A stretch of DNA of 10,440 bases from an uncultured Myxococcales bacterium (GTDB lineage: Bacteria > Myxococcota > UBA4151), in assembly GCA_964013405.1 (NCBI GenBank), contig CAXGWI010000128.1:1-10440 (forward strand), given 5' to 3'. How positions within the stretch are numbered: the first letter of the stretch is position 1; every line of letters begins with the position of its first letter. This document shows, in pieces, positions 667 to 10,440 of the stretch. The position numbers were made by a program, and so were the translations under genes. The notes under the pieces were generated by a model, which saw nothing but the letters and a program-made list of their open reading frames with translations, did no database searches and was not told where the DNA came from.

Positions 667-1116
667 ATGGAAGTGAATATCCGGCTGGCGGAGTCGGCGG
701 GGGGCGACCCATCGTTCATGCCCGTCTACGCAAGTGGTCAAGCCGCGGGCGCAGACCTTCGGGCGGCCGTTGCTGAGACCGTGACCTTGGCCCCCGGCGA
801 CCGACTGCTGATTCCAACGGGAATCCATATGGCCTTACCACCGGGATTTGAGGGCCAGGTCCGCAGTCGGTCCGGTTTGGCCCTCCACCATGGGCTCTAT
901 CTACCCAACGCACCGGGAACGATCGATTCGGATTACCGAGGTGAAATCGGCGTCATTCTGCAAAATGGTGGTGACCATCCGGTTCAGATTGAACGGGGCG
1001 AGCGGATTGCTCAGTTGATTATCGCACCGGTGTTTCAGGCGGACTTCGTGCCCAGTGATCACTTGGCTGGCACCGGCCGGGGAGCGGGTGGTTTCGGAAG
1101 TACAGGTCGGGCATGA
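667..1116 (+). CDS. dut: Trimeric dUTP diphosphatase (dUTPase), 149 aa
   Basis: All five trimeric dUTPase motifs are present: AGADL, RSRSGLA, GTIDSDYRGEI, ERIAQL and RGAGGFGSTG. Confidence 0.97.
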   Translation: MEVNIRLAESAGGDPSFMPVYASGQAAGADLRAAVAETVTLAPGDRLLIPTGIHMALPPGFEGQVRSRSGLALHHGLYLPNAPGTIDSDYRGEIGVILQNGGDHPVQIERGERIAQLIIAPVFQADFVPSDHLAGTGRGAGGFGSTGRA

Positions 1117-3278
1117 ATCACCCCCTCGACACCCTGTTGCCCACGTCGCGGCGGATCGCAGATCGCTATGAGGTGATCCGCCCCTTGGGTGTCGGCGCAT
1201 TGGGTGTCAGCTACCTGTGTCGGGACCAAGACCTCCAGGAGTTGGTCTGCTTAAAACTCGCCTACCGCCATATGTTGATCGGCCGCCGAGATCGGCGTGC
1301 GTTCGATCAATGGCTGCGGTCCATGCGCACGGCGAATTCGCCACGGTTGGCCGCCTTACAGCGGAGTGGCAGTGATGCCGAGGTCGGGACGTTCTTCGTG
1401 TCGAGCGTTGTCGAAGGTACGCCCTTAGCGAAGGTCGTTGCGGAAGCCGACAGATCCTTCCTGGCTTCAGAGGTCCGTGAACTTCTCGCGGGAATTCAGC
1501 GGGGGCTGAACGATCTTGGTGAGTTGGGCCCCCACGGCGTCCTTCACCTGAACAATATTCTGCTGACCGATGGGGATCCAGTGCTCACCGATGCCGGCAG
1601 CTATTTGAGTGTGCCAAGTCGCCTTTTTGTCGACGCCCACCGGCGTCAGGGGACCCATATCTGGTTGGCACCGGAAGTGATGCGGGAGCGCCAGGATTTA
1701 GACGGCCGGACCGACATCTATTCTGTTTGCGCCATCGCTGCTCATCTTTTGACGGGTCGGCCGCCGGGTTTACAGCAGCGCAAGGAACTCGAGACCTTGC
1801 ATCCCGCACTGCAGGCGGCCTTGCGAGCGGGCCTCACCGATACGGCTGAGGATCGGGTCGCCTCCTTGCACGCATTGGAAGCCGCACTCGATACCGCAAT
1901 CCAGACCGAGCCAGATGCAGAAGAGTTCACCGAGCGGACGGAGCGGTCTGAGCTGAGTATTCGCCAGGAGGACTTGGTCGATATCTACGAGGTGAGCGAG
2001 GAGCCAGCGGCTGGACAAGCCCAACCCACGACCACCGAATCGGAGGTGTCGACAAGGAACGAGGCCCCCTCGACGGTGGAAGAGACGGGTATCGAATCCG
2101 TGACGGACCGATCCCCCATGGATGAAGAGGAAGTGTCTCTGAGCCATGGCGTGTTGCGGTCCATGCCGGAAGGGCCAGCCCAAATGCCCCGAGTTCAGCG
2201 CTCACTCACAGCACTGCAGTGGGTTCTTTTGGCTGTGATTGGCCTGGGCGCGCTGGTTGCCAGCTATCTCATTTTTCAGGGTCTCCTGACGCGGGGGCCA
2301 ACGGATCCTGCCGGGACCCATCGGACCGTTGCAAAGAGTCCCCAGCATGAGGGCGACAACCTGGAGTTGCCTGGCCCTAGTCCGGACCAGAACGTGATCA
2401 GGGCGCCTTCCAGTCTCACCAAACCGGACGCAGGTCCCTCGGCTCGCCCGGCCTTGGCGAGGCCTCTGCGTGATGCTGGTATCGCCCACCGTGTGATTCG
2501 GGTCGATGGGGGGGGCGGCACAAATCTGGAAGTTCTCGCGGAGCAGGCCCTGGAGAAAGTCAGCGGAGAGGAAGGCTTGGAGGGGCTCGAGTCACCACCA
2601 CCGCCAGCCTTGGAGATTCGCCCAGCCCCGGAACCTGCTACTCCCACACCGCCAGCCGCCAAAGCCCAAGAGCCCATCGCGGCGCCCCAGAAAAAAGTGG
2701 GGGGGCGGGCCATTTGCAGCCGAGGGATGGCCCTGATTCCTGGGGGGCCGTTTTCGGCTGGCTCCAATGTGTCGGCCGCTGTGCGAAGTTCCGGCGAGCG
2801 GCAACCGACTCAAGTCGCTGTGGGGGATTTCTGCATGGATCGCTACGAGTACCCCAATTATTTGCGAAGCCCCCCCCGAGGAAATTTCGGCGCGTTCCAG
2901 GCCAAGGCCATGTGCGAGGCGAAGGGGAAGCGTTTGTGTGCGGAAGACGAGTGGGAAAAGGCATGCAAAGGGCCGAGGGGGCATAGCTATGCCTACGGTC
3001 CGGGTTACGTGCCCGGTCGATGCAATACGGTGGATGAAGGCCATGGGAGTGCTGTCGCGCCCTTGAAGTATCCCAAGTGCCGAGCGGGCTATCGAACATT
3101 CGCCATGACCGGTAATCTCGCCGAGTGGGTTCAGGCCAAATCAGGCTTTGCCCTCAAAGGTGGCTCCTATGAAGAAGGACAGTCCTCGGCCCGGTGTGCT
3201 GCGAGAGCGCCGGCTCCAGCCAGTCGTCGACGGGCAGAATACGGGGTGCGTTGTTGTGCGGATCCGAGTTACGAGTAG
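1113..3278 (+). CDS. Membrane-anchored Ser/Thr kinase-like (probable pseudokinase) / FGE-sulfatase (SUMF1-like) domain fusion protein, 721 aa
   Basis: N-terminal Hanks fold: RYEVIRPLGVGALGV, VCLK, NILL, LAPE, DIYS...LTGRPP. Then an acidic linker, one TM helix (LQWVLLAVIGLGALVASYLIF, about 2214-2276) and a Pro-rich spacer. C-terminal FGE-type motifs from about 2712: GMALIPGGPF, FCMDRYEYPN, GKRLCAEDEWEKAC, MTGNLAEW, KGGSY, GVRCC. ATGA overlap with the dut stop. Confidence 0.88.
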   Translation: MNHPLDTLLPTSRRIADRYEVIRPLGVGALGVSYLCRDQDLQELVCLKLAYRHMLIGRRDRRAFDQWLRSMRTANSPRLAALQRSGSDAEVGTFFVSSVVEGTPLAKVVAEADRSFLASEVRELLAGIQRGLNDLGELGPHGVLHLNNILLTDGDPVLTDAGSYLSVPSRLFVDAHRRQGTHIWLAPEVMRERQDLDGRTDIYSVCAIAAHLLTGRPPGLQQRKELETLHPALQAALRAGLTDTAEDRVASLHALEAALDTAIQTEPDAEEFTERTERSELSIRQEDLVDIYEVSEEPAAGQAQPTTTESEVSTRNEAPSTVEETGIESVTDRSPMDEEEVSLSHGVLRSMPEGPAQMPRVQRSLTALQWVLLAVIGLGALVASYLIFQGLLTRGPTDPAGTHRTVAKSPQHEGDNLELPGPSPDQNVIRAPSSLTKPDAGPSARPALARPLRDAGIAHRVIRVDGGGGTNLEVLAEQALEKVSGEEGLEGLESPPPPALEIRPAPEPATPTPPAAKAQEPIAAPQKKVGGRAICSRGMALIPGGPFSAGSNVSAAVRSSGERQPTQVAVGDFCMDRYEYPNYLRSPPRGNFGAFQAKAMCEAKGKRLCAEDEWEKACKGPRGHSYAYGPGYVPGRCNTVDEGHGSAVAPLKYPKCRAGYRTFAMTGNLAEWVQAKSGFALKGGSYEEGQSSARCAARAPAPASRRRAEYGVRCCADPSYE

Positions 3279-4062: not shown

Positions 4063-4734
4063 ATGGGTCGTATCTGCGTTCTTGGCGCTGCCATCTTCAT
4101 GGCTGCACCGGCTCAAGCCCACGCAGGCTTGGACGTCATGGGTGTGCACCTGGGGCAGAAGAAGCGGACTGCGTTACGGTGGGCCCGTAAGAAAACAGGC
4201 TGTCGGCCCATCAATCGCAAGTTGCGGAGCTTCTACGTCGCCGACGACCACAGCGTGGTGAGTCGTGGGCGGAAAGACCGCTCCGTGGCCGTGATGAACT
4301 GTCGGGATAAGCACTGGCGAGAGGCGAAGATTCGCGAATACCATTTCGTCCGGGGCCGCCTGGCTCGTATCGTGGTTCATCTGGACCCGGGCCTCGGTAG
4401 CAACCGGAGTGCCGGCGAGCCCTGGGTACCAAAGTATCATGAGATTAAGGCCGTCTTGACCGGCGTGCTTGGCGAGCCGGATGAGGTGGTCGAGCACGTG
4501 CCGAAGAGCTTTGCGGGTGACCCGGTCCGGGCCCTCGAGCAGCGGCGTGGAGGCTACTGGAGCCGCTGGGCTGAGCGATCCCGTCAGCGGGTGGATATGG
4601 GTTTGCGGTTAAGTGGAGACCGTAAGCAGCCGGGACGGGTGCTCTTTTACGTCGATATTCGGGGACGCAGTCAGATCAAGTCCCAGAAGAAGCGCCGGCG
4701 CAACCGATTGCGGCCTCGTTATAATCCCTATTGA
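4063..4734 (+). CDS. Highly basic exported hypothetical protein, 223 aa (start reassigned from 3973 to ATG 4063)
   Basis: GGAG at 4052-4055 lies 7 nt before ATG 4063, just after the upstream stop at 4058. This start yields a classic Sec signal peptide, MGRICVLGAAIFMAAPAQAHA|G. Confidence 0.75.
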   Translation: MGRICVLGAAIFMAAPAQAHAGLDVMGVHLGQKKRTALRWARKKTGCRPINRKLRSFYVADDHSVVSRGRKDRSVAVMNCRDKHWREAKIREYHFVRGRLARIVVHLDPGLGSNRSAGEPWVPKYHEIKAVLTGVLGEPDEVVEHVPKSFAGDPVRALEQRRGGYWSRWAERSRQRVDMGLRLSGDRKQPGRVLFYVDIRGRSQIKSQKKRRRNRLRPRYNPY

Positions 4735-5930
4735 GATCGCCTGATGCCTAGGGATTGGTGAAATCCAGGCCAGCTGACATCCACCGCATCGGCACTATCT
4801 AACTGGAGCCCGCCTGGGACGGTGGCTGCCAGGGCGCAGAGCGCCATGTGGATCCGATGATCGCCGTAGCAGGGGATCTCGGCGCTTTGGGCCTGTCCGC
4901 CGACCACTGTGAGCTCGTCTCCGGTCACATGGACCTCAAGGCCACATCTGTGGAGCGCCTCAGCCATCACCGCGAGGCGGTCGCTCTCTTTATGGCGGAT
5001 GCCAGGACTGCATTGGAGTCGCGTGGGACCTGGGCTGAGACTGGCGAGCACGGCCATCGGTGGCAGCAGGTCCGGTTGAGCCCTTAGATCCAAGTACGGA
5101 ACGGCCAATCGCTCACCGGGATGTATCGAGAGTCCATCGTCATGCCAACGCACGCTGGCGCCAAACTGCTCGAGAAACTGAGGGAGGGCCCGATCCGATT
5201 GTCGGGAGTGGCGTTGGAGGTTCGCTAGGCGCAGGGGTTGTCCCATGGCGATGGAGAAAGCCCCAGCCAAACCGGCTGCCGACCAGTCGCCCTCGATGGG
5301 GTAAAGCCCTCCTTGGGCCGTCTGGTTGCCAGGGATCTGGAAGCCATCGCTGGTTTTCTCGATCATCAAACCGAAATGGGCCGCCGCCTGCTGGGTCAAC
5401 TCGACATAACCCTGGGACGGCACCTCGCCGAGCAGCTGAATCCGGCTGTCTCCGGTGGCAAAGGGCAGGGCGAGCAGGAGGCTGGAAAGGAATTGGCTGG
5501 AGAGCTCCGCAGCGACGGAAAACAATCCGGGCTGGAGTGGTCCACGGATGCTGATGGGTAAGTGGTCGTCTCGGCTCTCGATCCAGACACCGGCTGCTTC
5601 GAGACTCCTGAGCAAGGAGGCATTCGTGCGTCGGGAGAGGGAAGCATCACCGACAAAATGGGTCGTTTCACCCAACAGCGCGGCCTGGCCTAAGAGGAAA
5701 CGCAGCGTCGTGCCTGAATTGCCACAGTCGATCGTGATCCCGTCGCCCAGGGCCGCCATGCCACGGTGGGTGGCTTCGGTATCCGCACAGTTCAAAAGCC
5801 CATCGAGCACGGGCGGATCAGGGCAGTGATGGGAAAGGATGAGGGCCCGGTGACTCAGGGACTTGCTACCGGGGACAGCCAGTGAGTCGGGTAGCTTCGA
5901 GGGAGCCTCGATACGCTGCAAAAGGCTCAT
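4728..5930 (-). CDS. aroA: 3-phosphoshikimate 1-carboxyvinyltransferase (EPSP synthase), 400 aa
   Basis: Motifs VPGSKSLSHRAL, DCGNSGTTLRF, SSQFLSSLLL, IEGDWSAA, PDL, RHKESDR, DHRI and SWPGF. ATGA overlap with the upstream transporter gene. Confidence 0.96.
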   Translation of the reverse strand: MSLLQRIEAPSKLPDSLAVPGSKSLSHRALILSHHCPDPPVLDGLLNCADTEATHRGMAALGDGITIDCGNSGTTLRFLLGQAALLGETTHFVGDASLSRRTNASLLRSLEAAGVWIESRDDHLPISIRGPLQPGLFSVAAELSSQFLSSLLLALPFATGDSRIQLLGEVPSQGYVELTQQAAAHFGLMIEKTSDGFQIPGNQTAQGGLYPIEGDWSAAGLAGAFSIAMGQPLRLANLQRHSRQSDRALPQFLEQFGASVRWHDDGLSIHPGERLAVPYLDLRAQPDLLPPMAVLASLSPGPTRLQCSPGIRHKESDRLAVMAEALHRCGLEVHVTGDELTVVGGQAQSAEIPCYGDHRIHMALCALAATVPGGLQLDSADAVDVSWPGFHQSLGIRRSQ

Positions 5931-6985
5931 AGTGACTCGACATGGACCGAGTCCCCTTCCGATGTGGAGTGGATCGCGCCAGGAAGCCTTCCTGCAAGAA
6001 TCTCGGCGGCCGGTCGCGTCGTCTCAAAGCGCGCGAGGATGATGCCCATAATCGCCGTCATCGGTGCGGCCATCAGCATGCCGACGGGACCCCAGATCAT
6101 GCCCCAAAAGATCAAAGCGAGGAGAATGCTCAGGGGGTGAAGGTCGAGGCCATCGCCCATCAGTTTCGGCTCGATGACGTTGCCGATCGTGAACTGGATC
6201 GATCCAGGAATCACGATGGCTGCGGCCACCATCAGTCCGCTCTCTAACTGAATCATCGCAATGGGTAGGGGCAGGAGGGTCGCGATGATGGAGCCAACGC
6301 TTGGAATGAAGTTCAGGAGGAAGGCCATAAAGCCGAAGACCATGGCGAGGTCGAGGCCAAAGAGTGCGAGGGTGCTGCCGACCAGGATGCCGGTGACTGC
6401 AGAGGTGATCACCTTGGTCGCCAGGTAGCGACGAATCTTCCGATCCATCTCCCCCCAAAGCCCCGAACGAACCTCTAGCGGCTGCCTTCCCAGAATCATG
6501 AAGACCGCAAACAACGCCACCAAGACCGAGGTGGTCAGGAAGTTCATGACACCGCCTACGGCGTCTTGCAGCAAAGGCAGGACAGGCAGTTCACGAATGC
6601 GATCGACGAAGTCCTTTTGACCGAGGTCGATGTTCCACCGTGTGAGCAGGCCGAGGACCCGATCGACCAATTGCAGTCCTTTTTCCTTGAAGGTGTCCAC
6701 GTTCTCCATCAGCCCGCCGATGGAGGTGATGAGGAGCAGCGTGAGCAAGGTGAGCAAGGATGCGATGACGAGAAAGGCTGCGAACAAAGCCACCCAACGA
6801 GGTGCCTTCAGGCCCAACTGCAGCCCATCGACTAAAGGGGCCACCAAATGGGTGAGAAACAGGGCGAGCATGAAAGGGACCATGACCGGCCGCGTCCAGT
6901 AGAGGGCGAAGGCCAGGCAGGTGGAAGCAATCACCAACAAGGAGACTGTCGTCAGGTTGCCTTGTTCGATCTGTCGTCCGCCCAT
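5927..6985 (-). CDS. AI-2E family (PerM/TqsA-like) transporter, 352 aa
   Basis: Multiple hydrophobic helices with family motifs LLNFIPSVG and NVIEPKLMGDGLDLHPLSILLALIFWGMIWGPVGMLMAAPMT. Typical length for the family. Confidence 0.93.
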   Translation of the reverse strand: MGGRQIEQGNLTTVSLLVIASTCLAFALYWTRPVMVPFMLALFLTHLVAPLVDGLQLGLKAPRWVALFAAFLVIASLLTLLTLLLITSIGGLMENVDTFKEKGLQLVDRVLGLLTRWNIDLGQKDFVDRIRELPVLPLLQDAVGGVMNFLTTSVLVALFAVFMILGRQPLEVRSGLWGEMDRKIRRYLATKVITSAVTGILVGSTLALFGLDLAMVFGFMAFLLNFIPSVGSIIATLLPLPIAMIQLESGLMVAAAIVIPGSIQFTIGNVIEPKLMGDGLDLHPLSILLALIFWGMIWGPVGMLMAAPMTAIMGIILARFETTRPAAEILAGRLPGAIHSTSEGDSVHVESL

Positions 6986-7009: not shown

Positions 7010-10000
7010 TTAGTCCGAAACCCCCAATGCAACAGGTCCCGTCGCTTCGCCGCTTCCGGGCTCATAGTAGCTGTCGATCGTCGAGGCCGGCGCATTGCCA
7101 TTCATGGGGTACCGGGCTCGCAGGCGGAAGCTCAGCGATTGTGGGGTCTGGGGAGGGAGTCCCATGAGGTAGAAGACGATTTTGCGAGGGTCTGCCTCCC
7201 AGCGTGCAGCCCGTCGCTCGGCCACCAGGGCGTCGAGATCTTCCGGCATGATATCGAAGCCAGGGGGACGGCCGATGCTCACGATCACTTGATCCATGGG
7301 GCCCTCGGCCAGGTTGGTCGCTGTTGCTCGCACCCGAGTCGTCTCCCCAGGGGCCAAGTCCGTTCGGTCGTAAGCCACGTCCAAACTCAGGGTTTGGTTC
7401 GGATTCGGGACGGGGCGCCGATCCCAGGGGCGATAGTGGGTCCCAACCACTTGGTACATCAGGCTGCCCTCACCACGGATCCCAACATTCACCACGTTTT
7501 CACCGGTCACCAAGTGCTCACTCAGATCGGTGGTGAGGTGGACATCACCGAAGTCCTCGTTGCGAAAGTCATAGCGCTGAACGGCCCGGCCATTGTGGGT
7601 GATGACGATCTCGGCATCGATGCTGCGAGTCGCTTCCATCGCCGCGGTCAGCAGGGCTCGAAGGCTGTTCACGGTGGCCTGGGTGGAGTACCAATTCCCG
7701 AAGGCATCTTTCGTGGCCGCGAGGAAGGCCAAACCTTCGGAGACGAGGCCACTACTGGTCCCGGCCTTGATGAAGGCGTAGACGACGAGGCCAGTCATCT
7801 CCACCTCGCCAGGCGTGCCACCTCCTCGCGCACCGGTCCACGAGCCCCCTTCGAAACTCCACTTCTTCTGCCCTTCTCCAGGGGTCTCTGCGGCCGTCGC
7901 CAGCTGGCTCAGCAAGCCCGGGAGGGCTGGGTCCGCAGGATCCCGGGCCAATAAGGCGTTGGCCATGAGGGCGATGGCGTAGCGGTCGCGGGAGGCCTCC
8001 TCAATGTTGGCGACCAGGAAATCTCTTCCCCGCCGCGTCGCGTCTGGAGCGCCACCATCTTTGGCAAGTCCCCATGTGATGAAGGCTGTCGAGCGATAGG
8101 GGCTCGTACCCAAGGCCTCGTTGCCTGAATGTAGGGCATCACCGGCGGCCCAAGAGCCATCACCGGCCTGTTGCTCGACGAGCCAAGTCCGGTGGCGGTC
8201 TGCGACTCGCTCATCGGTCTCGATGAGCCCATCAAGGGCTGCGAACTGCATGAGGGCAATGGCTGTAAGAATGCGGTTGCCAGGATCATTATTGCCCCAC
8301 CAGTTGTAGCCACCTGTTGGGCTTTCGAAGGTCAAAATACGTTGGTAGCCGGTGGCCAAAAGTTCCATGGCCCGGGCCCGGAGATCCGGATCGATCTCTC
8401 CCGTGGCTTCCAGGTATTGCAGGGCAAGGATGTTGGGCCACGCGGTGGATGTGGTCTGCTCGAAGCAGCCCGAGGGAACCCGTAGCATCGATTCCATCCC
8501 CTCCACCGCGTTGGTGGCGTAGCCAGGATAGAGTTTGATCATCAACTCGTTGGCGTCGGGCACTGCATCCACCGGGAAAAGGGTGGTGATGTTGTTGTCT
8601 GGACCCTCTGCCCGCCCACCGACGGTTTGTTCGACAGCATCGCCATTGGGCGCAATGCGGAGGCTTCGCTGGACTGCATCAGCCTCGTCGCCGGCCTGGC
8701 CCTGAATCGTGAGTTGGGCTGTCCCCACCGACGTCGCGGCGATGGTGTAGTAGACGCCCCGGACCTCACCGGCCCCTAAGCGGAGGGTCTGCCGGGCCTG
8801 GGAGCGTAACTCCAGGGGACCATCGATCTCCAGTTGAAGGTCAACCTCCTGGGCCTCTTCTAGGTAGTTGTAGACCACAACCGGTAGGCCGATTTCATCG
8901 CCGACCGTGAGCTGGGCCGGAAGGTCGATATCCACGAAGAAGGGTTGGAAGACCTCAAGTCCCTGGGCACTGGAGCCGAGGGCGCCCTGCGCGCTGTTGG
9001 CTTGGGCCCCGACGCGCCAGGTGGTGATGCTGTCGGCCAGGGGGATCTCCACTTCCGCCCGTCCCTGCTCATCAACGATGACGCTTGGAGCCGTAAACAG
9101 TGTCTCGGGGAACCAACTGCGAACTTGGATTCCCCCAGCCCCGCCAGGCTCGGCAACACCGGTGTCTTCTGGACCATTCGGGTCGGCACCTCCGCCGCCA
9201 CCGCCACCACCGGCTTGGGGAGGGCCGGCCCCTTCCTCATCTTCAAGAAAGCCTCTGGCGAGGGGGCGAATCCAACCGGAGACATCATCGAGGGTTTCAA
9301 AAACTTCGTCGGGACCGGCCGTCGTTAGTCGGATGTGCCAACCGTTGCCGGTATGGCGATAGGGTTGCCCGAAGGGGTCGCTTAATTGAGCGACGAGTCG
9401 GAGAGCCTCAGCCTCCAGTTGGTCCCAATCAAGCTCGCCGGAATTAAGTCGTTCCTGGAGATCGCGACCGATGCGCTCACCCTCCTTCTGGATGCGCAAT
9501 TGGAGCGCAACCCGGACTTCGTGAAGCGCCAGTCGTTCTGAGTCCAGTTGAACCAAAGCGAGGGGCCCTAAGGCGGCGGGAAAGGCCAGACGAGCGAGGG
9601 CCTCTCGCCGACCATCATCGGACTCGGAGAGGACCTCGCCAGGCCGCACCGGGCCGGTCGCTGCATCGGCATCTCCCGAAAGGTCGAAATGGGTCTCAAG
9701 GCGGCCGGGTGCGGCATCACCGAGGGCGAAGACAGCTTCGTCGACGGCCGTCAGACCGACGTTCGCCTGCACCGGCTGTCCTAGGTGGTCAGCCACTTGA
9801 ATCCGCAGGTTCGCCCGCTCACCGGGACGGTATTGGGCTTGGTCAAAGCGCAGGCCCACGTCCAGGGCGGCTAAGGCTTGCACATAAACCATGGCTTGCC
9901 CTGTCACGAGGGCCTCATCGCCCCGTCGAGCCATGGCGCTCAAGGTCAAGCCGCCATGAAAGCGCTCGTCGAGGGGAACCACCAGTTGGGCCTGCCCATC

Positions 10001-10440
10001 TTCGAGCCGCCCCTGGACGGTGGCGAGGGTGCTGCCAGCTTTGATCACGTCGAGGAAGACATCGCCCGATGCCTCCGGGACGATGGCCGTGACCTCGAGG
10101 GCCCCAGGCGCTCGCAGGACGTGGCGGTTGGGCCGGAGGAGAAAACGATCCTGGCTCGCCAGAGGGAGGGTGACATTTTGTTCGAAGGCCGGCGCACCGT
10201 CGGGCTCGACGGTCATCGTGATGCCCTGGCCTGCCGCCTCCTGGGGCAGATCGAAATGGCCCGAGCCCGTGGCATCGGTATTGATCCGCAGCCCAGAAAG
10301 GCCCGGCCCAGCGAGTGTGATCGGCAGGGCCAGCGGTGCGCCGCCCGGGTCACGGGCAAGCACTTGGATCCGATTGTTGGTGCCGGGAATGACGGCGCCA
10401 TTCTCCGGGACGAGGTGAACGAGGGCGGCGCCAGCCGCAA
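7010..10440 (-). CDS. Alpha-2-macroglobulin / thioester-containing protein (partial, 5' end outside window; more than 1140 aa)
   Basis: The frame is open beyond GTG 10363 to the window edge (AAGAALVHLVPENGAVIPGTNNRIQV...). Motifs: YRPGE, AVDEAVFAL, VRSWFPETL, DSITTW, VFQPFFVDIDLP, thioester GCFEQ (CFEQ at 8456-8467), GYQRIL, VEMTG, STQATV..L.AL, and a C-terminal receptor-binding/MG8 domain (PPGF...SYYEP). Confidence 0.95.
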   Translation of the reverse strand, partial: AAGAALVHLVPENGAVIPGTNNRIQVLARDPGGAPLALPITLAGPGLSGLRINTDATGSGHFDLPQEAAGQGITMTVEPDGAPAFEQNVTLPLASQDRFLLRPNRHVLRAPGALEVTAIVPEASGDVFLDVIKAGSTLATVQGRLEDGQAQLVVPLDERFHGGLTLSAMARRGDEALVTGQAMVYVQALAALDVGLRFDQAQYRPGERANLRIQVADHLGQPVQANVGLTAVDEAVFALGDAAPGRLETHFDLSGDADAATGPVRPGEVLSESDDGRREALARLAFPAALGPLALVQLDSERLALHEVRVALQLRIQKEGERIGRDLQERLNSGELDWDQLEAEALRLVAQLSDPFGQPYRHTGNGWHIRLTTAGPDEVFETLDDVSGWIRPLARGFLEDEEGAGPPQAGGGGGGGGADPNGPEDTGVAEPGGAGGIQVRSWFPETLFTAPSVIVDEQGRAEVEIPLADSITTWRVGAQANSAQGALGSSAQGLEVFQPFFVDIDLPAQLTVGDEIGLPVVVYNYLEEAQEVDLQLEIDGPLELRSQARQTLRLGAGEVRGVYYTIAATSVGTAQLTIQGQAGDEADAVQRSLRIAPNGDAVEQTVGGRAEGPDNNITTLFPVDAVPDANELMIKLYPGYATNAVEGMESMLRVPSGCFEQTTSTAWPNILALQYLEATGEIDPDLRARAMELLATGYQRILTFESPTGGYNWWGNNDPGNRILTAIALMQFAALDGLIETDERVADRHRTWLVEQQAGDGSWAAGDALHSGNEALGTSPYRSTAFITWGLAKDGGAPDATRRGRDFLVANIEEASRDRYAIALMANALLARDPADPALPGLLSQLATAAETPGEGQKKWSFEGGSWTGARGGGTPGEVEMTGLVVYAFIKAGTSSGLVSEGLAFLAATKDAFGNWYSTQATVNSLRALLTAAMEATRSIDAEIVITHNGRAVQRYDFRNEDFGDVHLTTDLSEHLVTGENVVNVGIRGEGSLMYQVVGTHYRPWDRRPVPNPNQTLSLDVAYDRTDLAPGETTRVRATATNLAEGPMDQVIVSIGRPPGFDIMPEDLDALVAERRAARWEADPRKIVFYLMGLPPQTPQSLSFRLRARYPMNGNAPASTIDSYYEPGSGEATGPVALGVSD

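Follow-up and report, generated by a model that had tools for sequence, protein, structure and literature searches.

The window analyzed here is a stretch of 10,440 nucleotides from an uncultured Myxococcales bacterium (contig CAXGWI010000128.1 of assembly GCA_964013405.1) and corresponds to the entire contig C128. Its minus strand carries the larger part of a gene for a thioester protein which, in sequence, is closer to animal proteins of the alpha-2-macroglobulin (A2M) and complement superfamily than to the A2M proteins described in bacteria. The features of this gene are the following:

7010..10438, minus strand: gene of the animal-type thioester protein, C-terminal 1142 codons, open frame running off the contig end
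9284..9379, minus strand: family-specific insert ahead of the bait, consensus DPxG..Y...GPD..T.DD; relatives match Pfam T2SSG here
9128..9283, minus strand: bait-like low-complexity linker of about 52 aa, Gly/Pro/acidic with Arg/Leu/Phe at its start, assigned from its sequence and its position just before the plug; putative cleavage site
9101..9121, minus strand: R-S-W-F-P-E-T, the conserved Arg/Phe plug that follows the bait region in animal members, aligned to A2M, A2ML1 and CD109
7652..8509, minus strand: thioester domain (TED), Pfam TED_complement, aa 644-929, E 2e-33
8456..8467, minus strand: thioester motif CFEQ (in PSGCFEQ), Cys at 8465-8467, with Val, not Tyr, at Cys-4
8129..8131, minus strand: His (in GDALHSG) at the catalytic position of C3, C4B, A2ML1 and CD109; its loop lacks one residue relative to the animal proteins
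7055..7291, minus strand: macroglobulin domain MG8 (receptor-binding type, A2M_recep), pocket tyrosines aa 1090, 1124 and 1125
7289-7291, minus strand: site of the Met-to-Gln change in the pocket, where Gln1050 replaces the Met

The full protein, obtained by adding the part carried by contig C200 of the same genome, has about 1605 residues. The final 29 bases of the window overlap the start of C200, on which the remaining first 472 codons, including the lipobox, are found (L001 1-1416, minus strand). Residues 1-471 of a relative, P0002, match C200 and its residues 463-1597 match C128. Upstream of the gene are dsbD-like and thiG genes and downstream are genes for an AI-2E transporter and for AroA. 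The order thiG, dsbD-like, thioester gene, AI-2E transporter, aroA is common to the window locus and to that of a close relative labelled Myxococcales (L003), which supports the joining of the two contigs as well as the broad taxon. A frameshift or a truncation of the gene was also considered and is ruled out, since the frame is open and carries on into C200.

Pfam recognizes A2M_BRD, A2M, TED_complement and A2M_recep in the window frame, and MG2 as well in the chain as a whole. Together with the fold matches, these domains place the TED and its CxEQ motif within an MG-CUB-TED-MG8 chain, hence within the A2M/complement thioester superfamily. At the N-terminus, on C200, a signal peptide is followed, after a hydrophobic stretch, by a lipobox at Cys20 (identified by eye and by pattern); with a permissive pattern, a lipobox-like Cys is found in 36 of the 42 full-length members of the window-type subgroup. 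The whole protein holds three Cys and the chain ends after MG8. The Cys count, the chain end and the Pfam matches therefore leave no anaphylatoxin or C345C domain. In animals, family members are triggered via the Arg/Phe plug located after the bait region (PMC9352918; PMC9156758); the R..FP motif of this plug was present in neither of two type I proteins. The insert ahead of the bait resembles a type II secretion system (T2SS) pseudopilin G motif, with a T2SSG match (PF08334) at 803-878 of the relative P0061, at a place where animals have a linker or the anaphylatoxin domain. Databases annotate such proteins as alpha-2-macroglobulin family or CD109 antigen, and NCBIfam holds no model matching the window protein.

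Sequence scores rank the animal proteins first. With the single sequence as query, CD109 obtains 149 bits (E 2e-42), A2ML1 140, A2M 125 and C3 79, followed by the bacterial SaA2M (57) and ECAM (52). A family profile gives 469 bits for A2M, 432 for CD109, 402 for A2ML1, 350 for C3 and 317 for TEP1, and its match extends to the C3 beta chain; E. coli YfhM obtains 84 bits with a profile derived from the same alignment. The same genome encodes a separate, classical type I A2M adjoining PBP1c (L002 211-6589, G000 C84), which shows the reverse pattern, with 266 bits to ECAM and 23-45 bits to animal proteins. Bacterial and eukaryotic thioester pockets are also reported to differ, type I being characterized by TED tyrosines (YPY) and a C-terminal Met-Tyr (PMC4498604). 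The pocket of the present family lies on the eukaryotic side: there is no Tyr at Cys-4, and the MG8 Tyr and the Tyr-Tyr are found in 202/202 and 201/201, respectively, of the members covering these columns. Judged from its residues and scores, the window protein is not a classical bacterial A2M.

Structure models agree with this view. The TED model (predicted local distance difference test, pLDDT, 92.9) gives Z scores of 33.3 with A2M, 32.4 with CD109 and 30.1 with C3d, for root-mean-square deviations (rmsd) of 2.4-2.5 over 273-288 aligned residues. The AlphaFold model of the C-terminal 707 residues (pLDDT 88.6) resembles native A2ML1, CD109 and C3 with template modelling (TM) scores of 0.79, 0.76 and 0.74 (0.71-0.79 for the native set including TEP1), against 0.32-0.36 for activated C3b. 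By Z score, TEP1 comes at the top for this C-terminal half (38.2, rmsd 4.6, 657 aligned residues), with A2ML1 at 36.2 (rmsd 4.1, 669 aligned residues). Because AlphaFold knows the animal structures, these matches indicate compatibility only, and the absence of type I structures among the top 50 fold matches carries no evidential weight.

In C3 and C4B, a catalytic His produces an acyl-imidazole that is reactive toward hydroxyls. The first-pass annotation had proposed that the window protein combines an intact thioester with a His at about this position. Indeed, the Cys codon of CFEQ (8465-8467) and the His codon (8129-8131) belong to a single open frame of the minus strand, 112 codons apart, and CFEQ is present in 121/121 aligned homologues; the word intact applies here to the motif. 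The spacing of 112 residues falls within the range of about 110-116 that characterizes C3 and C4B. HMMER pairs the His with the last residue of "VIH" in CD109, of "LLH" in A2ML1 and of "LLN" in A2M. Counting in this alignment makes it equivalent to Asn1088 of A2M and to His1084 of A2ML1, the positions named in PMC7864068, provided that an 18-residue offset is assumed for the numbering of A2ML1 chain 7q1y. The one-residue gap seen by eye in the first-pass annotation is real, the His being found 7 residues past the aromatic residue of a G-S-W motif vs. 8 in animals and in most relatives. The His falls in the catalytic column in three of four alignments and one column earlier in the fourth. The 10-residue block containing it has a pLDDT of 64 in the TED model, where it is the weakest internal block, and of 60 in the model of the C-terminal half.

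Conservation of the His, which had been put forward as a check, holds among close homologues and is partial further out. L-H is invariant in the 34 best homologues (41-81% identical) even though the loop residues on either side of it differ, which argues that the His is there by more than chance. Across 208 family members, the site, called by a spacing rule, is occupied by His in 99, Asn in 33, Ala in 22, Asp in 14, Arg in 11 and other residues in 29. The 99 His members comprise 68 with the short loop and 31 with the animal spacing. Since the His motif served to define the short-loop ("+7") subgroup, its 68/68 His is circular, and the count among the 34 best homologues is the fair one. The site tracks lineage, with His in 10 of 15 Myxococcota loci and Asn in 30 of 32 Acidobacteriota loci. 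Animals likewise vary among His, Asn, Asp and Ser at this site (PMC7016707), so the variation among His, Asn, Asp and Ala fits a tunable nucleophile preference. The pocket Met is replaced by Gln in 53 of the 68 short-loop members and in no other member examined. The two changes may be a co-adapted pair; shared ancestry may account for part of this association. Altogether, the window His is quite probably functional and, given its equivalence in position to the His of C3 and C4B, reactivity toward hydroxyls is a fair prediction.

The family is widespread. Its patterns are found at no fewer than 594 loci of species genomes (594 of the 600 matches listed), and the 79 loci examined span at least 11 named phyla, including Myxococcota, Acidobacteriota, Armatimonadota, Planctomycetota, Verrucomicrobiota and candidate phyla. 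Within the phylum of the window, the TED has matches at E 1e-5 in 176 of 301 genomes, weak half-domain matches of the type I kind being included in this number. An atlas search added TED clusters and nothing else. A large-genome family of the same phylum carries a form of 1350-1570 aa (L165, L167-L176, L180) in which a C3-spaced His occurs in 9/12 and, by eye, Asp in 3/12, and in which the R..FP plug pattern is absent in 12/12. Relatives of about 2000 aa, some named Pyrinomonadaceae or Blastocatellia (P0125-P0181), contain carboxypeptidase-regulatory-like inserts and an intact CxEQ; the catalytic His occurs in 1 of 56 of them. One genome has three family copies, two of them near each other on the same contig (G086:C438 3831-11400) and the third elsewhere.

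A metagenome scan with a vertebrate A2M alignment revealed relatives that are nearer to eukaryotes than the window protein. Uninterrupted frames were found in 73 of 80 loci (L090, L092-L141, L143-L164), with 32-39% identity to lungfish A2M over about 700 aa, on contigs of up to 241 kb where the neighbouring genes are of bacterial type, for example rpsG, an FtsH-like gene and response regulators. This subfamily carries the motif GCGEQNM ... GFVHHQEMxGG, with the His in 72 of 73. Its profile drew proteins from clusters named Altiarchaeales, Atribacteria, Undinarchaeales and Acidobacteriota, and also acorn-worm C3 and sponge, choanoflagellate and dinoflagellate transcript proteins. Three His-bearing proteins from choanoflagellate and dinoflagellate transcriptomes (P0479, P0399, P0381) are at the base of the eukaryotic clade, where contamination by prey is possible. 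Another cluster (P0462) represents a 1640-aa thioester protein of the eukaryotic clade, apparently in one frame, on contigs of up to 214 kb; its host may be a protist, a giant virus or a prokaryote.

In all trees, the animal-like class forms a single clade, set apart from type I and from the other classical proteins of bacteria (Shimodaira-Hasegawa-like approximate likelihood ratio test, SH-aLRT, 99-100); these supports come from quick searches without bootstrap, with a long-branch outgroup and one C3. In the tree with this C3, which adds to 23 earlier rows a manual selection of 23 of the 148 new representatives, the eukaryotic rows group with four unassigned ones (100), and this clade is nested among the nearer prokaryotic proteins (100 and 99); another tree left out 16 of 58 rows. 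The window group branches separately, outside the clade that unites eukaryotes with the nearer prokaryotic relatives (SH-aLRT 99-100), and is not nested in the eukaryotic TEP (thioester-containing protein) clade. Approximately unbiased (AU) tests, made with 27 of 58 rows, no C3 and groups named after a first tree, rejected the holding together of the animal-like prokaryotic rows (p-AU 1.3e-4) as well as a clade uniting type I with the window group (p-AU 5e-119). Recent acquisition of the gene from an animal is ruled out by the spread over at least 11 named phyla among the 79 loci and by the position of the group outside the eukaryotic clade. The quick trees leave room for an ancient transfer out of an early eukaryote, combined with a misplaced root. 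On balance, the trees make it probable that eukaryotic C3, A2M and CD109 descend from a bacterial or archaeal animal-like class, of which the window protein would appear to be a cousin lineage and not the nearest one.

Two types of bacterial A2M have been described and it has been suggested that bacteria may have acquired A2M from animal hosts (PMC3735191, PMC9156758, PMC12874980). The sequences gathered here point to a third, widespread and apparently undescribed class in environmental bacteria, distinct from the YfhM and YfaS types and sharing with animals the trigger motif, the pocket and the catalytic His. Neither this class nor a catalytic His in bacterial members is described in the full-text literature searched, outside of which most subscription papers lie. 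If the nesting of eukaryotic members among prokaryotic ones is true, the transfer would have run opposite to the animal-to-bacteria direction and complement chemistry would predate animals.

As to function, we consider it reasonably likely that the window protein is a monomeric, lipid-anchored envelope protein acting as a covalent protease trap in the manner of A2ML1 and CD109; this view draws on sequence, on models and on analogy. The protein would be exported and anchored via the lipobox observed at its N-terminus. The Cys-Gln thioester would then form and be shielded against MG8, as suggested by the motif, by the pocket tyrosines and by a model that resembles the unactivated animal proteins. 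By analogy with A2M and A2ML1, cleavage of the bait-like linker by a foreign or stray protease would cause the R..FP plug to retract and the TED to swing out. The His would attack the thioester, as in A2ML1 and C3, and the resulting short-lived acyl-imidazole would bond the protease through a Lys, Ser, Thr or Tyr, or else react with water. Finally, the tethered protease would be kept off envelope substrates. The nearest solved relatives, CD109 and the protease traps A2ML1 and A2M, ahead of C3, support this scheme. The anatomy of the protein, with its lipobox, bait-like linker and three Cys and its lack of anaphylatoxin, C345C and lectin domains, also suggests a trap. A2ML1 is a monomeric protease inhibitor that needs His1084 to bond proteases without amines, with an ester to a protease Ser (PMC7864068). 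By analogy, the His likely widens the chemistry of the trap from amines to hydroxyls.

Several observations weigh against this proposal. The His loop is one residue short, modelled with low confidence and, in one alignment, one column out of register. The chemistry may also differ because of the Gln that replaces the pocket Met in 53/68 of the subgroup. A classical type I A2M is encoded next to PBP1c in the same genome, so that a second trap would have to serve a purpose of its own. Insect TEP1 shares this architecture and is not known to have an anaphylatoxin or C345C domain. TEP1 is nevertheless believed to be complement-like (PMC9156758), so architecture alone cannot exclude tagging. Finally, introduction of a His into A2M brought only a minor gain in hydroxyl reactivity (PMC7864068).

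These features of the loop and pocket would also suit a trap that reacts with amines only, in which the short-loop subgroup keeps the His for folding or thioester protection and no acyl-imidazole is formed. The shorter loop and its ambiguous register in one of four alignments, the low pLDDT, the link between the Met-to-Gln change and the short loop, and the retention of CFEQ by the roughly half of the wider family that has no His all go in this direction. However, the L-H is invariant in the 34 best matches, and a His occurs with the animal spacing in 31 further members, in 72/73 of the nearer-to-animal prokaryotic proteins and in 9/12 of the large-genome relatives of the same phylum, which makes such a role for the His unlikely.

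The first-pass annotation had favored instead a complement-like system in which the cleaved protein bonds glycans on prey, competitor or phage surfaces, thereby marking or tethering them. It leaned on a contrast between C3, with His, and protease traps, with Asn. This contrast does not hold, since human A2ML1, a protease trap, has the His. Thus, the His predicts possible hydroxyl reactivity, not tagging, and is not diagnostic. In favor of a tag are the C3/C4B position of the His, the grouping of the host with Myxococcota by its closest named relatives, and a LamG lectin-like domain in some nearer-to-animal relatives (P0345). Myxococcota is a phylum with many predators. In addition, archaeal TEP-like proteins have been proposed to be immune-like (PMC8416519). 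However, the lipobox suggests an anchor that would hold the protein on its own cell, the bait-like linker points to a trap, and anaphylatoxin and C345C domains are lacking. No lectin domain was found in the Pfam lists of the 120 best matches and no member of the family among viral contigs. A tag also needs a reader; there is no conserved neighbouring protease, von Willebrand factor A (vWA) or receptor gene within 4 kb in 14 distinct subgroup loci, the distant genes of the genome not having been searched. Tagging is therefore judged quite improbable.

Bonding of the protein, upon damage, to its own peptidoglycan, lipopolysaccharide or matrix polysaccharide, as a patch or a covalent adhesin, would fit an anchor in an envelope rich in hydroxyl groups, short-lived intermediates that react with the nearest partner (PMC7864068) and the extracytoplasmic function (ECF) sigma factor neighbours of some relatives, but these ECF-linked relatives are mostly of the Asn form, no link to cell-wall genes was seen apart from one weak PBP1c-like match in 80 loci, and the literature examined holds no precedent, so we regard it as very unlikely.

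The boldest combination, in which prokaryotes invented the complement thioester and His chemistry and already vary the His/Asn/Asp specificity switch known from C3, A2M and C4A, and in which, in addition, predatory myxobacteria use the His form to bond glycans of prey or competitors, seems to us very doubtful as a whole. The prokaryotic origin is its stronger half and tagging its weak link; if true, the latter would be a bacterial forerunner of opsonisation. The natural His, Asn and Asp variants make both chemistry and function testable, as do complete single-contig genomes of the same phylum in which a His-bearing copy is present (L165, L167-L174).

The other genes of the window are the following:

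667-1116, plus strand: dUTPase
1113-3278, plus strand: fusion of a Ser/Thr kinase-like domain, a transmembrane stretch and an FGE-sulfatase-like domain, kept in L003
3282-4058 and 3973-4734, plus strand: two unassigned open reading frames
4728-5930, minus strand: aroA
5927-6985, minus strand: AI-2E transporter

Apart from the synteny with L003 and one downstream unannotated gene common to L008, L009 (of which L182 is a duplicate) and L013, no conserved partner gene was found. As regards PBP1c, the match mentioned above, a transglycosylase, is the single one among the 80 related loci. In 10-11 loci, an ECF-type sigma factor gene and a zf-HC2 anti-sigma gene are directly upstream of family members, which are mostly of the Asn form and in Acidobacteriota. 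This linkage is a hint at envelope-stress control. The pairs are located as follows:

L048 3806-6168; L050 3893-6129; 9 further loci: ECF-type sigma and zf-HC2 pair upstream of a family member

Compared with known systems, membership of type II (YfaS/MagD), defined by the lack of a thioester motif and by a six-gene operon (PMC5764988), is ruled out, since CFEQ is present and there is no such operon. With the type I A2M of E. coli (YfhM/ECAM) and Salmonella (SaA2M), the window protein has in common the lipobox of a bacterial lipoprotein, the CxEQ motif and a bait or bait-like region; both probably share the same broad job. It differs from them by scores of 52-57 bits, by the absence of Tyr at Cys-4 and of an adjacent PBP1c, and by an animal-type MG8 pocket (Tyr-Tyr, not Met-Tyr) and the plug motif. 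Type I membership is thus ruled out by the gene context, the pocket residues and the tree grouping (p-AU 5e-119). The archaeal TED proteins of Makarova et al. 2021 (PMC8416519), compared here by their description, also have a TED, an intact CxEQ and a TEP-like arrangement, and have been proposed to be immune-related. The parts of this source considered here contain no analysis of the His and no tree against animals; its supplements may list members of the class.

C3 and C4B resemble the window protein by the thioester motif and the His, and the family profile matches both chains of C3; insect TEP1 gives the top Z score for the C-terminal half. In contrast to C3 and C4, the window protein has no anaphylatoxin or C345C domain, scores lower with them than with A2M and CD109, and has no convertase or receptor partner within 4 kb in the 14 distinct loci, the whole genome not having been searched. 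The likeness is stronger with human A2ML1 (PDB 7q1y, 7q5z): the window His aligns to His1084, the TM score of the whole C-terminal half is the best (0.79), and a bait-like region is followed by the R..FP plug as in traps of this kind. However, A2ML1 is a soluble, disulfide-rich animal protein, whereas the window protein has a His loop one residue shorter and Gln in place of the pocket Met. Human CD109 (PDB 8s3o, 9fx2, 9fx3) differs by its C-terminal GPI (glycosylphosphatidylinositol) tail, in place of which the window protein has a predicted N-terminal lipid anchor. The window protein also has about 170 extra N-terminal profile positions ahead of the region matching the C3 beta chain, the T2SSG-like insert, CFEQ instead of CGEQ and three Cys in all. 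Both are nonetheless membrane-tethered, CD109 by its GPI anchor (PMC7016707) and the window protein, as predicted, by its lipid. CD109 is the best match of the single sequence, shares the MG7-CUB-TED-MG8 arrangement with a TM score of 0.76, and carries a His at the same position.

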